A DNA stretch of 12,987 nucleotides, taken from the UHGV virus genome UHGV-0056732; one strand, 5' to 3'. The stretch's first letter is position 1, and each line of letters opens with the position of its first letter. Under the pieces are notes generated by a model. That model made no database searches. It worked only from the letters and a program-made list of their open reading frames with translations, and was not told where the DNA came from. This stretch comes from a virus. Shown here one piece after another: positions 4,696-10,932 of this stretch. The position numbers and the translations under genes were made by a program.

Positions 4696-7683
4696 ATGAG
4701 CTTAAGCGATCAGGTGGTAATGGCCACCAGCATAGAAACGCTGATCGAGCTGCTAAAGAACCTGCCCGATTATGGGCGGGTTTCGTATGTGGTGACAGCG
4801 AAGGGAGACGAGGTAAAAACAGCGTTTGATATCGTCGATGCCTCAGCTCTTTTGGTATCCAATACTCTGGATGGGAAAATTAATCCAGACTATCCCCAGG
4901 AACTTCAGCCGCGCGACCGGACCCGCGCATCCAGCCTTCTTCAGGTCAACCAGATATCCAAGGATTTGCGTCCTGCCCAGCTTACCGATTCCGGTTTATC
5001 CAGCCATGGCGCGCCAATAATTGGTGAGGACAATGCCGTTGAGTCAGGTAATGGGCGGACCATGGGGATCATTAAAGCCTATCAGGACGGTAATGCGGAT
5101 CGGTATCGGGAGTACCTGATTGAACATGCGACCGAATTCGGCATACGGCCTGAAAAGGTTGAATCAATGACGGCTCCGGTACTGGTGCGCCGCCGGTTAA
5201 CGACGGTTGACCGTGTTCAGTTTGCCAAGGACTCAAATATTTCTGATCTCCAGGAAATGGCAGCCAGTGAAAAGGCTTTTGTTGATGCCGACAGCATAAC
5301 ACCGGCGATGATGGCGCTTTTTAACCCGTCAGAAAGCGGAGATCTGCTTAGCCGCAGTAATGACGCGTTTATTCGCGGATTTATGACGCAAGTTGGTGCC
5401 ACACAGGCGGCTGGCCTTGTAACTGAAGATGGGCGACCAACACGGCAACTTGTTGACCGTATACAAAACGCGATCTTTGCCAAGGCATATAAGGATGCGC
5501 GCCTGGTAAGGATGGTTGCAGAAGAACCTGATCCGGATATGCGTAATGTTCTGACGGCGCTTAATGCGGCAGCCAATGATTTTGTCCAGATGCAGGCTTT
5601 ATCAGGAGAAGCGCACAAGCAGGCTGTGACAACTATTGTTGATGGCATTGAGACAGCGGATAGCCTCGATAAAAAGGCGCTGGCGGCATTGAAAGATGCG
5701 GTAGACCTGGTAAGGCAATCGAAGGAGTCAGGCCAGCATATTACCGATGTTATTGCTCAGGGGGATATGTTCAGCGAAACGGCCCCGGAAGTGAAAGCAC
5801 TCGCGTTGTTCATCGTCGCGAATAACCGTAGCGCGAAGCGTATGGCCACCGCCTTTAAGTTGATGGCTCAACGTATCAATGATGAGTTACAGCACCAGGG
5901 CCAGGCGCTGGGGGATATGTTTGGCGGCGGCGATGTGTCGTTACAGGATATCCTTCGCCAGGTGTCTCAGGAACTGGAAAACGAAGGCATGCAAGGGATA
6001 TCCGGCGGTCTTTTCGAGTCCGTTTCCGGCGGTAGTTACAACGGTGTTGCTCCGTATACCAGTTTGCTATTACATCGGGCATCCGGCATCAAAGACATTA
6101 TTCATCTGATCAGGCTGCTTTCCCGCACAGATCCCCAGGATGAACAGCTTGTACAAGTGCTTGCGCATTTTGTTCGAATGCCTGTTGCCGACGTGAAAAA
6201 ATGGTGCCGATTATTCGGTATCAGCAATTCGTTACTTCGCGGCTTGTTAAATCACGCATCCTCCCTTGGGCGCGATGGCTTTGACGAGATAGCGCAGGCG
6301 ATAAAAAACGGAGATATGCCACCAGCTATTGACTGGTTTTCCATTCGCCCAACCAGGGTGAAAGCATTCCTTAGCGCGGCGCATTCGGCATCACCATTGG
6401 CAGAAATGGTTCAGAGGTTATCGCTCATATTCACAGACCATACCGCGTTGGGTGATCTGACTCTGGACGAGATGAAGGAAGCCTCCATTCAGTGGGCCGA
6501 TCAACAAAATGAGGTTAACTCAGACTTCTTGCCAGCATTCAGGAAGGCCGTTAGTAAAGCGGATGATGCCCGTGGAATTCTGAAGGCATTTAAGGCATTG
6601 CAAAGTCGTGTTAATAAACATGTCGGTGATATCGATGGGGTAACGGCGGAAGGCAGGGATATCCTCAAAGAGCACGGCATAACGCCAGAGTTTATTGATG
6701 AGATCAGGACGGATATGCAGCGTGAGGTCGTATCGTCCCTGCAAATCGTAGCCAGAGCGTTGGCGGATGCTAATCCGAAGAGTGCGGCCATTGTTAACCG
6801 GGTTATTGGTGATATTGAAGCATCGGAGGGCATGGGGGCGCTGAAACTCTTCCTTTCGCGAGCGTTTAATCCTAACGGCAATATTCTCCCTGGCATTATT
6901 GGTGAGGCTAAAAAGTATGTCAGTGAAGAAGAACTTGAGCAGCTTGACCAACTACTTAAGCGATTCTCATATAACCCGCAGACACGCTGGCAAATGAATC
7001 AGCGAAGTATGGGTTCGGTCCACGAGAAAGTGTTATCTGCCATGAACAGTGCGATCGCAAACTCATCCGTATCTGAAGAAAAAGCTCTTGAGTGGGCCGA
7101 CTCTTTTATCACAGAAGAAGTGGAAGAAGCCCGCGCTGGACAGAATGGTGGGATAGACCTGCGCAAGGAACTTGCTGATATTTATCGCCTGACCGGCGGG
7201 AAAATATCGACCTTATCAAAGGTAGTTCACCACCAGGGAAGGGCATATGCAAATCTAAATGGTGTTGTTGCTGTCAATTTGAACGATAAAAATGCAAGTG
7301 CACTGTGGCACGAGCTGGGTCATCATCTTGAGTACAGTAACCCTGGTTTGTTAGAGAAAGCCCGGTCATTCCTGAAGGCCAATGTTGAAGGGGATAAGCC
7401 ATCATTCGTCAATATCGGTGGGCGTGGCAAGCCTGAATGGTGCTTCAGATCTCGATTGAGTAATATTTATATGGCGAAGGTATACCCGCCAGCCTCAGTA
7501 AGTAATTCCGGGAAAATTCGGCAGAAATCACCGACTATTTCCAAAACGTCAGCAACGGAAGTATTCTCTATGGCTCTTCAGTTGTATCATGACAAAGAGG
7601 CCGCTGCCGCATCACTGATGAATGGTGACGGATTGCTGGAACTGTTATTAGGTGTGGCAAAGGAGCTAAATAATGCAGATTAA
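4696..7683 (+). CDS. ddrB: DdrB-like large protein, 995 aa, with an N-terminal ParB/Srx-like motif region and a C-terminal HExxH zinc-metallopeptidase-like motif
   Basis: ATG at 4696; residues about 60-130 carry a ParB-N-like pattern (NPDYPQELQPRDR ... APIIGEDNAVESGNGRTMGI); residues 872-876 are HELGH (nt 7309-7323) followed by H877 and E887; size matches the roughly 108-kDa P1 DdrB as recalled. Confidence 0.65.
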   Translation: MSLSDQVVMATSIETLIELLKNLPDYGRVSYVVTAKGDEVKTAFDIVDASALLVSNTLDGKINPDYPQELQPRDRTRASSLLQVNQISKDLRPAQLTDSGLSSHGAPIIGEDNAVESGNGRTMGIIKAYQDGNADRYREYLIEHATEFGIRPEKVESMTAPVLVRRRLTTVDRVQFAKDSNISDLQEMAASEKAFVDADSITPAMMALFNPSESGDLLSRSNDAFIRGFMTQVGATQAAGLVTEDGRPTRQLVDRIQNAIFAKAYKDARLVRMVAEEPDPDMRNVLTALNAAANDFVQMQALSGEAHKQAVTTIVDGIETADSLDKKALAALKDAVDLVRQSKESGQHITDVIAQGDMFSETAPEVKALALFIVANNRSAKRMATAFKLMAQRINDELQHQGQALGDMFGGGDVSLQDILRQVSQELENEGMQGISGGLFESVSGGSYNGVAPYTSLLLHRASGIKDIIHLIRLLSRTDPQDEQLVQVLAHFVRMPVADVKKWCRLFGISNSLLRGLLNHASSLGRDGFDEIAQAIKNGDMPPAIDWFSIRPTRVKAFLSAAHSASPLAEMVQRLSLIFTDHTALGDLTLDEMKEASIQWADQQNEVNSDFLPAFRKAVSKADDARGILKAFKALQSRVNKHVGDIDGVTAEGRDILKEHGITPEFIDEIRTDMQREVVSSLQIVARALADANPKSAAIVNRVIGDIEASEGMGALKLFLSRAFNPNGNILPGIIGEAKKYVSEEELEQLDQLLKRFSYNPQTRWQMNQRSMGSVHEKVLSAMNSAIANSSVSEEKALEWADSFITEEVEEARAGQNGGIDLRKELADIYRLTGGKISTLSKVVHHQGRAYANLNGVVAVNLNDKNASALWHELGHHLEYSNPGLLEKARSFLKANVEGDKPSFVNIGGRGKPEWCFRSRLSNIYMAKVYPPASVSNSGKIRQKSPTISKTSATEVFSMALQLYHDKEAAAASLMNGDGLLELLLGVAKELNNAD

Positions 7684-7993
7684 AATCGCAGCGCCATTAG
7701 GCGGAGATGCCATTATCGAATTTGATGATAATGAAGAAGTTTCCGGGCGTTTGAGCATTATCTCCGGTGACATTACCGAGGACATGATCGCTGAAGCCAT
7801 AGCTGGGGCAAATCCCAATAGCTATATGGGATTCGTTAACACCCTTGATGCTCCCGCAAGTGATGTTCTCCGAACGCTGCATCTTTACGCTGGCTGGTTT
7901 GTTGATTGGCCAGCAGTAGATGGTGGCGATGAGGATGATGATGACGATGAAGAGGTTTTTAGTGATGAAACAGTAAACCAACTCTTGTATTGA
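7673..7993 (+). CDS. Hypothetical highly acidic protein, 106 aa, translationally coupled to ddrB
   Basis: ATG at 7673 overlapping the ddrB 3' end by 11 nt, SD AAGGAG 7 nt upstream; poly-acidic C-terminus DGGDEDDDDDEEVFSDE; about 27 D/E versus 3-4 K/R. Confidence 0.6.
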   Translation: MQIKIAAPLGGDAIIEFDDNEEVSGRLSIISGDITEDMIAEAIAGANPNSYMGFVNTLDAPASDVLRTLHLYAGWFVDWPAVDGGDEDDDDDEEVFSDETVNQLLY

Positions 7994-8123
7994 CAGGAAT
8001 TGGCATAGAATTGATTGTTCAAATTTCATCCATCACATAGACGACTTCATGTTATTTGCCTGATAATTATGGCCTTAATAACCCATGTATATCTTTTGGG
8101 TTATATTCTTATCTTTAACAAGG

Positions 8124-8167
8124 TTATAAGAGCGACAATGATAAATTTATCACTATCGCTCTTATAA
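8124..8167. repeat. 44-bp near-perfect palindrome between convergent genes; possible terminator and/or protein-binding site
   Basis: TTATAAGAGCGACAAT-GATAAATTTATC-ACTATCGCTCTTATAA: 16-bp arms (14/16 complementary) around a perfect 12-bp palindromic core; followed by T-rich CTCTTTGTT; lies between the stop of the 106-aa ORF (7993) and the stop of the minus-strand 95-aa ORF (8197). Confidence 0.5.
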
Positions 8168-8196
8168 CTCTTTGTTAGCTATAGCTTTAAACAAAT

Positions 8197-8484
8197 TTAG
8201 TTTTGAGGCAATGCAACAAAAGTCAGCTCTTGATCTTTGATTAATGCTTTTGTTTGTTTGGATGTAATTCCCACTTTAGTTTTTACATCATTGTGGAGCT
8301 TCTTATACGCTTTTATTTCATCTGCTGTATATCGGAAGCCATTTGCACTGTTACTGGACAGTTGAAGTGCGATTACGTCATCACTGACACCCGCATCGCT
8401 TAGCTTAGCTATGCGGGTAATAGTGTGGCCTGCGCGAGTGTTTGGGGTGGATATTTTGTCTAAGAAATTGTTCAGTTTTTCCAT
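8197..8484 (-). CDS. Hypothetical small protein, 95 aa, possibly HTH DNA-binding, in an AT-rich island
   Basis: ATG at 8484 with SD AGAGG 9 nt upstream; segment HTITRIAKLSDAGVSDDVIALQL resembles a helix-turn-helix; visibly AT-rich flanks; own upstream region separated from the 263-aa gene by a terminator. Confidence 0.55.
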   Translation of the reverse strand: MEKLNNFLDKISTPNTRAGHTITRIAKLSDAGVSDDVIALQLSSNSANGFRYTADEIKAYKKLHNDVKTKVGITSKQTKALIKDQELTFVALPQN

Positions 8485-8706
8485 TGTTTACAACCTCTTA
8501 CTTGAGTTTATTGCCAGTAGAATTGCTACTATTCTTTTGCCTCAACGAATCACAATGTACTGGAATAAGAAACTATGAGCAATACTTACGCTTTGCGAAT
8601 ACAGAAGATGAATAATCAACTTATTACTAAAATGTTAATAATATTATTCTGTTACATAGTGTTCGCTATAACAATCGGGAGTTGAATGCTAATTCAATAA
8701 ATAAAG

Positions 8707-8732
8707 ACCCCGCCAATTGGCGGGTTCTTTTT
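8707..8732 (-). terminator. Rho-independent terminator just downstream of the 263-aa gene; also usable on the plus strand
   Basis: GC stem CCCGCC(8709-8714)/GGCGGG(8719-8724) with 4-nt loop AATT; T-run TTCTTTTT (8725-8732) on plus, GTCTTTATT on minus. Confidence 0.6.
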
Positions 8733-9519
8733 AATCACTTTCCACTTCTCCCGTGGTGTTTTCTTGCAGTTCTGTTAATGCAGCACGACATAGGTTCCGG
8801 GCATTGGCTATAGCCACACTTTTGACTTCATCCGTCATCGTGCAGGTAATGTACTGATCGAGTTCTTCATCGCGGATGATGCTTTTGCCAATCAGAAACT
8901 GTATTTGCCAGAGCAGATCGGCATCCATAATCAGAATTTCTGCCGGGCCTTCAGGGCCAGCCGGGAAGGAAACATAAGACTGTTTGCCCAGGCCGACAAC
9001 TCGACAACTTGCTTCAAGAATTGCGCGCTTGAGGTCTGACTTTATAACGGAAACAGGTTGATTTTCACCAGTGATTACGCCGTTGACATGGAAAGGCATG
9101 TAGCTTGAAATTCGCTCTACTTTCCATACGCCAGCAAGCGATCCTTCATGCAGCACAATGGGGGTAACCGCGAGTTTCATCTCACCATATAACTGCTGGC
9201 AGATAGCTGGATTGCTGAATACATCCAAAGGTTCACACTCAAACAGCGGCGCAATCTGCATGAGGTCCATCATGGTCATCCCTGGGGTACGAGCAGTAAT
9301 GAATCTGCGCATACCAGTATCCATTGCGCTCCAGATTGCTACACCATGCTTTTTGCTCACTTCTTCAGTAAAGCCAAGGTGGCACATGATGGTTTTTTCG
9401 ATAGCCAGATCAGAGATAGAAACCTTTTCGCCTGGCACTCCATCATTATTGACGGTCACTTCGACACTCTGGCCATTACGCAGGCGGTATTGAATTGTTT
9501 TAGTATTTTGTGCTGTCAT
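8731..9519 (-). CDS. Hypothetical protein, 262 aa, unknown function, directly downstream of ssb
   Basis: ATG at 9519 (MTAQNTK...) with SD GAGGAAA 7 nt upstream; the longer ORF to 9639 has no RBS; no terminator seen between ssb and this gene; terminator follows at 8707-8732. No family recognised; hhhhDxD-like ILIMDAD at residues 195-201 is weak, non-diagnostic evidence. Confidence 0.65.
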   Translation of the reverse strand: MTAQNTKTIQYRLRNGQSVEVTVNNDGVPGEKVSISDLAIEKTIMCHLGFTEEVSKKHGVAIWSAMDTGMRRFITARTPGMTMMDLMQIAPLFECEPLDVFSNPAICQQLYGEMKLAVTPIVLHEGSLAGVWKVERISSYMPFHVNGVITGENQPVSVIKSDLKRAILEASCRVVGLGKQSYVSFPAGPEGPAEILIMDADLLWQIQFLIGKSIIRDEELDQYITCTMTDEVKSVAIANARNLCRAALTELQENTTGEVESD

Positions 9520-9716
9520 AGTCTTTCCTCTGCTTAAAACCTGATGTATTGCGCCTTCAGGTGGGTCAGGAATGTTTTCCCACCAGCGAAAGCAATATCT
9601 CGGGGTGTTCTTTTCGTGAAAAGCGCGTGCCATTGCCAACTTTGGCGTTTTTTAGCGAGTTCGTGCTTTTGTTGGCGTTTGGACCACCGCTTTTCTTTCA
9701 GTCGTTTTTTACACAT

Positions 9717-10205
9717 TCAAAACGGAATATCGTCGTCAAAGTCCATTGGAGGTTCGTTATTGGCGTTGCTCTGAGGTTTACCGCCACCGCTGTATTGCTG
9801 GTGGTTTTGAGGTTGGTTTGATTGCCCCCAGCCATTTGAGGACTGTGAATCGTCACGGCGAGCGCCGATCATTTGCATGGTGCCGCCCTGGCTGACGATA
9901 ATTTCCGTCGTGTAACGTTCTACACCGGCGTCATCTGTCCACTTACGGGTTTTAAGTTTCCCTTCGATGTAGACCTGAGAACCTTTTCGTAAATACTCAC
10001 TCGCAATTTCAGCAAGTTTTCCGAACAAAACGACTTTATGCCATTCTGTTTGCTCTTTCTGTTGGCCCGTTTGCTTGTCGCGCCATGATTCATTCGTTGC
10101 GATGCTGAGTCTTCCGACCGCGACGCCATTTGGTATATACCTGATCTCCGGGTCTTGCCCCAGGGTACCAATCAGGATGACTTTGTTTACACCGCGTTGT
10201 GCCAC
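9717..10205 (-). CDS. ssb: Single-stranded DNA-binding protein (SSB), about 162 aa
   Basis: Canonical SSB OB-fold sequence ([20 protein letters not shown] ... [37 protein letters not shown]), Gly/Gln-rich tail and C-terminal [11 protein letters not shown]. Start taken as GTG at 10205 (MAQRGVNKV) by alignment to E. coli SSB; the ORF-track start at 10226 is a TTG. Confidence 0.9.
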
Positions 10206-10224
10206 TTTTCTTACCCAATAAAAC

Positions 10225-10241
10225 AAATTAATTAGAGCAAT
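10225..10241 (-). promoter_or_regulatory. Near-consensus P1 C1-repressor operator in the ssb/lyz divergent control region
   Basis: Minus strand reads ATTGCTCTAATTAATTT, 16 of 17 matches to the recalled P1 C1 operator consensus ATTGCTCTAATAAATTT; lies 20-36 bp upstream of the ssb GTG start. Confidence 0.55.
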
Positions 10242-10268
10242 AATGTATATCTTTGAAACGTAGCTAAC

Positions 10269-10287
10269 AAGTGATTTGCATTATCCT
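10269..10287 (+). promoter_or_regulatory. Candidate P1-type late promoter for lyz
   Basis: AAGTGATTT (10269-10277) - GCAT - TATCCT (10282-10287); same architecture and spacing as the lydA-upstream element. Confidence 0.4.
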
Positions 10288-10374: not shown

Positions 10375-10932
10375 ATGAAGGGAAAAACAGCCGCAGGAGG
10401 CGGTGCAATTTGCGCTATCGCGGTGATGATTACCATCGTGATGGGTAATGGCAATGTGCGAACCAACCAGGCGGGGCTTGAGCTGATTGGTAACGCTGAA
10501 GGTTGCCGACGTGATCCATACATGTGCCCTGCGGGGGTATGGACTGACGGGATCGGTAATACACACGGGGTAACGCCGGGTGTGCGAAAAACCGACCAGC
10601 AAATCGCCGCTGATTGGGAAAAGAATATCCTGATCGCTGAACGCTGTATTAATCAGCACTTCCGGGGCAAAGACATGCCCGATAATGCCTTCAGTGCAAT
10701 GACAAGCGCGGCATTCAATATGGGATGCAATAGCTTACGGACCTACTACAGCAAAGCGCGAGGCATGCGAGTAGAAACGTCCATCCACAAGTGGGCGCAG
10801 AAAGGGGAATGGGTGAATATGTGTAACCATCTCCCTGATTTCGTGAACAGTAACGGCGTGCCCCTGCGAGGTTTAAAGATTCGCCGTGAAAAAGAACGCC
10901 AGCTTTGCCTGACGGGACTGGTCAATGAATAA
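10375..10932 (+). CDS. lyz: SAR endolysin (T4-type lysozyme with N-terminal signal-anchor-release domain), 185 aa
   Basis: ATG at 10375 with GAGG SD; N-terminus MKGKTAAGGGAICAIAVMITIVMGNG is a Gly/Ala-rich weakly hydrophobic SAR helix; Cys13, Cys44, Cys51 with Glu42 and Thr57 reproduce the disulfide-isomerisation arrangement described for P1 Lyz; lysozyme core (NAEGCRRDPYMCPAGVWTDGIGNTHGV). Confidence 0.9.
   Translation: MKGKTAAGGGAICAIAVMITIVMGNGNVRTNQAGLELIGNAEGCRRDPYMCPAGVWTDGIGNTHGVTPGVRKTDQQIAADWEKNILIAERCINQHFRGKDMPDNAFSAMTSAAFNMGCNSLRTYYSKARGMRVETSIHKWAQKGEWVNMCNHLPDFVNSNGVPLRGLKIRREKERQLCLTGLVNE

Follow-up and report, generated by a model that had tools for sequence, protein, structure and literature searches.

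Between the divergent ssb and lyz genes of the viral genome UHGV-0056732 lies a 17-bp sequence that resembles the operators of C1, the immunity repressor of phage P1. The questions raised by this locus are whether the sequence is a C1 operator and which of the two neighbouring genes it would control. The analysis covered the whole stretch of 12,987 nt (referred to as the window). As judged from sequence comparison, positions 10225-10241 are the already described Op21/Ossb operator, carried unchanged in a P1-like plasmid; the finding is a rediscovery of a known site. The sequence identity, statistics, geometry, and conservation that form the basis of this assignment were computed here.

The site and its counterparts in P1 and P7

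Positions 10225-10241 read AAATTAATTAGAGCAAT on the + strand and 5'-ATTGCTCTAATTAATTT-3' on the - strand, on which the site was assigned as a monovalent C1 repressor operator and putative orthologue of P1 Ossb (former Op21) based on the consensus, an operator matrix, and identity to annotated sites. The C1 operator consensus (ATTGCTCTAATAAATTT) is a 17-bp asymmetric sequence, and a dispersed operator set has also been described (PMC8546580). The site agrees with this consensus at 16 out of 17 positions, the sole mismatch being T for A at position 12, and the same T is present in 3 out of 19 other annotated P1 operators (Oref, Orlf, and Oppp). Elsewhere in the 12,987 nt, neither strand contains a site with three or fewer mismatches to the consensus. 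A position weight matrix was built in a leave-one-out manner from 19 of the 20 annotated C1 operators of the complete P1 record AF234172, and the ssb operator was the one omitted, so that the test of the ssb site is non-circular. With this matrix the site scores 26.0 bits and falls in the upper part of the score range of the annotated P1 operators (14.9-28.2 bits, with the exception of the weak half-site Oc1b at 6.3 bits). An earlier note on this DNA had pointed out a 16/17 match to the C1 operator just upstream of ssb, and this claim is borne out by a site that is unique in the window and scores 26.0 bits. A bivalent organization with an overlapping partner (cf. Op72ab and Op99ab) was considered and rejected: no overlapping site exceeds 4 bits, and the operator was classified as monovalent.

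In a gapless alignment of the window with two P1 records and P7, no base differs in the operator, the ssb promoter, or the lyz late promoter. The identical sequence is annotated in AF125376.2 as 'operator 21 (Op21); binding site for the major P1 repressor protein C1', in AF234172 as 'monovalent C1-controlled operator Ossb; corresponds to former Op21' with a cross-reference to the original Op21 fragment M25412, and in the P7 record AF503408 as 'monovalent C1-controlled operator Op(ssb); controls expression of ssb'. The position of the site is orthologous to that of Op21/Ossb, as it is located between ssb and lyz with identical flanks and both genes are confirmed by Pfam. In P1 (AF125376.2 nt 5683-5699; AF234172 nt 21015-21031; M25412), the 17-bp sequence, P2ssb, LPlyz, the location between ssb and lyz, and the orientation are all the same as in the window, and no difference exists within the operator or the promoters. 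The window differs from P1 in the base 3' of the operator (10224), which is C and not T, in two changes within the ssb leader/start region (10208 and 10216), and in that its P1-like plasmid is without the IS1/isaB insertion downstream of isaA. The P7 operator Op(ssb) (AF503408 nt 24773-24789) lies in an operator/promoter region that is the same as in the window, and the variants at 10208 and 10216 are common to both, but P7 carries nmpC beyond ssb and not the isaA homologue. Citron, Velleman and Schuster (J Biol Chem 1989) reportedly defined Op21 through its binding of C1, and Lehnherr and colleagues (J Bacteriol 1999) are said to have used a lacZ fusion to show full repression of ssb-P1 in lysogens.

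The same asymmetric 17-bp motif is found in the other monovalent P1 operators Oc4/Op51, OrepL/Op53, Odmt/Op68, OpmgT/Op88, and Olpa/Op94 (24-27 bits in P1), each of which overlaps a sigma-70 early promoter. Most of these five operators overlap the -35 or the -10 hexamer, whereas the ssb operator is located directly downstream of the -10 hexamer, across the inferred transcription start.

Control of ssb, the isaA homologue, and lyz

The ssb gene (9717-10205, - strand, GTG start) is the orthologue of P1 ssb and encodes a single-stranded DNA-binding protein of 162 aa (Pfam SSB, PF00436, E = 9e-40). The coordinates of its sigma-70 promoter P2ssb (former Pr21; 10242-10270, - strand) were transferred from the P1 annotation via the gapless identical alignment. 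P2ssb consists of a -35 hexamer TTGTTA (10270-10265), a 17-nt spacer, and a -10 hexamer TACATT (10247-10242). Both hexamers are weak, with 8 out of 12 consensus positions, and P2ssb is absent from a generic promoter scan of the window that used a threshold of 9/12; its assignment as a promoter is thus based on the P1 annotation. The operator (10241-10225 in the direction of ssb transcription) starts one base past the -10 hexamer and is followed by a 19-nt leader with the motif GGGTAAG and the GTG start codon at 10205. The substitutions at 10208 and 10216, which are common to P7, change the ssb ribosome-binding region from AGGT in P1 to GGGT in the window and P7, and they weaken the -10 hexamers of two further sigma-70 promoters that the P1 annotation merely predicts, Plyz and P1ssb.

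It is very probable that the site is the orthologue of P1 Op21/Ossb and that C1 bound there blocks P2ssb and keeps ssb silent in the lysogen. In P1, C1 represses the promoters that adjoin its operators, Lxc (also named Bof, an enhancer of C1 binding) strengthens the binding, and Coi and Ant inactivate C1 (PMC8546580; PMC8198154). In a lysogen, C1 would occupy the asymmetric 17-bp site next to P2ssb, which extends from about -6 to +11 relative to the inferred ssb transcription start, and would sterically block RNA polymerase at P2ssb, leaving ssb silent. Occlusion of the transcription start should be the mechanism of repression, as suggested by the geometry of a locus in which the operator begins right after the -10 hexamer. 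P2ssb would fire as an early promoter once Coi or Ant, or heat in the case of c1.100 mutants, has inactivated C1. The C1 control of ssb is taken over from the literature and from the annotation of the identical P1 sequence: ssb belongs to the genes under C1 control, and its expression rises after the lytic switch, according to RT-qPCR in a P1Cm c1.100 lysogen with heat-inactivated C1.100 (PMC4713147). These P1 expression data, together with the curated annotation of the identical P1 and P7 sequence, support the proposal of the earlier note that ssb is under the control of the immunity repressor.

Downstream of ssb, the window contains an open reading frame of 262 aa (8731-9519, - strand) with a GAGGAAA Shine-Dalgarno sequence before its ATG. 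Its DNA is ~95% identical to P1 isaA, no Pfam family was found for the 262-aa protein, and the RefSeq annotation of plasmid NZ_CP173116.1 has a 789-nt gene at the same position. A terminator scan identified no terminator-like site on the - strand between ssb and isaA. Directly 3' of the isaA homologue, the scan identified a GC-rich palindrome CCCGCCAATTGGCGGG (8709-8724) with T-rich tails on both strands, a candidate bidirectional terminator and the candidate end of an ssb-isaA unit. Co-transcription of ssb and isaA from P2ssb is plausible because no terminator is predicted between the genes and a terminator-like hairpin follows isaA. Co-repression of the isaA homologue with ssb by C1 is likewise plausible, and the gene would probably be silenced together with ssb in the lysogen. 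In P1, ssb and isaA are non-essential and lyz is essential (CRISPRi; PMC10695390).

The isaA region differs from P1 in two further respects. The annotated P1 IsaA has 320 aa, and the position equivalent to its GTG start codon is 9687 in the window. Within the segment 9520-9687, a substitution at 9652-9654 (- strand) creates an in-frame TAA 11 codons past the P1 GTG (CTCGCTAAAAAAC in the window, CTCGCAAACAAAC in P1). This stop codon implies that the conserved isaA coding region probably starts at the ATG at 9519 (262 aa, strong Shine-Dalgarno sequence), and the N-terminal extension of P1 IsaA may be an over-annotation. On the other side of the gene, a stretch at about 7949-8730 between hxr and the isaA homologue is absent from P1, where IS1 and isaB are located, and is common to phage vB_EcoM-Ro157c2YLVW and some plasmids. 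It contains a 95-aa open reading frame (8197-8484, - strand) for which no Pfam family was found.

The lyz gene (10375-10932, + strand; lyz in the P1 annotation) is divergent from ssb and encodes an endolysin of 185 aa (Pfam Phage_lysozyme, PF00959, E = 2e-22). Its Lpa-dependent late promoter LPlyz (10269-10287, + strand) is identical to the annotated P1 LPlyz and consists of a -22 box AAGTGATTT (10269-10277) and a -10 hexamer TATCCT (10282-10287). The -22 box and the -35 hexamer of P2ssb overlap by 2 nt. The earlier note placed the operator ~30 bp from the lyz late-promoter element, which is correct: 28 bp separate the end of the operator (10241) from the start of the -22 box (10269). This proximity and the overlap of the two promoters would fit an operator that also, or mainly, controls lyz, with C1 blocking lyz-ward transcription from a sigma-70 promoter Plyz or interfering with LPlyz. 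The P1 annotation predicts Plyz inside the 5' end of ssb, and transcripts from there would cross the operator. However, where P1 has TATCTT as the predicted -10 hexamer of Plyz, the window and P7 have TTTCTT, and this loss of the key A at position 2 speaks against the conservation of a promoter for C1 to block. Furthermore, the inferred start of LPlyz is ~61 bp away from the operator centre, which lies upstream of it and beyond the polymerase footprint, lyz transcription is reported to be Lpa-dependent (PMC8198154), and the P7 annotation gives the operator to ssb alone. The P1 lpa gene has its own C1 operator, Olpa (AF234172 annotation), so that the C1 control of lyz is already explained indirectly. 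A role of the operator in the control of lyz is very unlikely in the light of these data. For the late promoter itself, a direct effect of C1 at the operator is considered unlikely because of the distance to the LPlyz start and the requirement for Lpa, and no support for such an effect was found.

With the operator acting on P2ssb and ssb, lyz would be turned on later in the lytic cycle from LPlyz by Lpa, and C1 repression of the lpa gene would place lyz under indirect C1 control. There is a small chance that C1 at Ossb also sets the early-to-late hand-over at the back-to-back promoters P2ssb and LPlyz.

The source element and its relatives

The sequence indicates that all of the window is part of a P1-like phage-plasmid, and the identity of the corresponding regions to the window is 98.8% for phage P1 and 98.1% for P7. 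The closest complete record is a plasmid of E. coli STEC799 (NZ_CP173116.1) that aligns to the entire window at 99.6% identity, and a second record (NZ_CP027575.1) is 100% identical across 321 nt around the site. The c1 gene is located outside the 13-kb window and is annotated as 'frameshifted' in NZ_CP173116.1, two observations that would suit a P1-like plasmid that is defective or lacks its repressor and in which the operator survives as a relic with no regulatory role. However, the frameshift is located exactly at the junction of the circular record (100073/1) and both halves of c1 are 99-100% identical to P1 C1, for which reasons the frameshift is probably an artefact of assembly or circularization; the broken c1 gene was not taken as real. 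NZ_CP173116.1 retains the whole operator set (25 matrix sites of at least 14 bits, including the ssb site) as well as lpa, and the operator and promoter in the window are intact and identical to P1. These observations leave the relic explanation with an extremely low probability and favour an operator through which C1 would still repress ssb. NZ_CP173116.1 additionally carries cnf3 and several extra icd/antirepressor modules, and a strong match to the C1 operator precedes each of these modules.

The 63-nt control region that comprises the operator, P2ssb, and LPlyz is present in 500 PLSDB plasmids, mostly from Escherichia and some from Salmonella and Klebsiella, and is an exact match in 298 of them. 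Among six of the most divergent copies that were sampled, four carry one or two substitutions within the operator, at positions 1, 6, and 12-14. The four variant operators score 18.6-23.3 bits and are inside the range of functional P1 operators. These copies represent an operator-substituted minority of P1-like plasmids (L006, L007 (pSA186_4), L008, and L011), and one of the variants has a T6C change in the conserved operator core (ATTGCCCTAATTAATTT) that introduces a base absent at position 6 from all annotated P1 operators. With a similarly small probability as the hand-over discussed above, and separately from it, the substitutions in these minority plasmids might tune the derepression of ssb and isaA by lineage.

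Operator matrix and annotation of P1-like plasmids

The specificity of the match was assessed within the window and on the complete P1 genome. Dinucleotide-preserving shuffles of the window (200 replicates) give an expected number of 0.04 consensus matches with three or fewer mismatches. A scan with a matrix of known P1 operators, which the earlier note had suggested as a check of its match, separates the ssb site (26.0 bits) from the remaining sequence, and 0 out of 300 first-order Markov surrogates of the window attain 26 bits. No further C1 operator was found within the window by the matrix scan: the runner-up (8155-8171, + strand) scores 8.7 bits, which is lower than all annotated operators except Oc1b and 17 bits behind the ssb site. 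A functionless chance match in AT-rich intergenic DNA (GC 0.365), in favour of which 1 out of 300 surrogates with the dinucleotide content of the intergenic region attained the observed score under a model trained on a 170-nt stretch that includes the operator itself, has a practically negligible probability and was dropped in view of the shuffle and matrix statistics, the position and identical sequence shared with the annotated P1 and P7 operator, and the retention of the site in about 500 plasmids.

For the complete genome, a full matrix of all 20 annotated P1 sites was scanned over the 94.8 kb of P1 with a cut-off of 14 bits. This recovered 19 out of 20 annotated operators together with two extra matches, and with only two extra matches in 94.8 kb the background of the matrix is very low. 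One of the two (AF234172 nt 1485-1501, + strand; ATTGCTATAATTATTTG) is located upstream of c8 and scores 18.4 bits, the other (nt 17166-17182, + strand; ATTGCCCTAATGTATTT) is located near the darB/prt junction and scores 16.2 bits, and both are without operator annotation. The number of P1 operators is given as 22 in a previous study (PMC8546580), and the AF234172 record lists 20 monovalent sites. A further observation concerns Omat (AF234172 nt 2628-2645), which is annotated as 18 nt on the - strand, whereas CATGCACTAATAAATAT, which resembles an operator, is found on the + strand; this record seems to be wrong about both the strand and the length of Omat.

Overall, real C1 operators stand out cleanly from the AT-rich background in a scan with a simple matrix of known sites, and this matrix could serve for the annotation of the many database entries of P1-like plasmids whose ssb-lyz intergenic region is unannotated. 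The operator described here has little import beyond its correct annotation, and what it indicates for the biology of the element is that ssb in this P1-like plasmid is still wired into the immunity circuit in the canonical manner, just as in P1 and P7.
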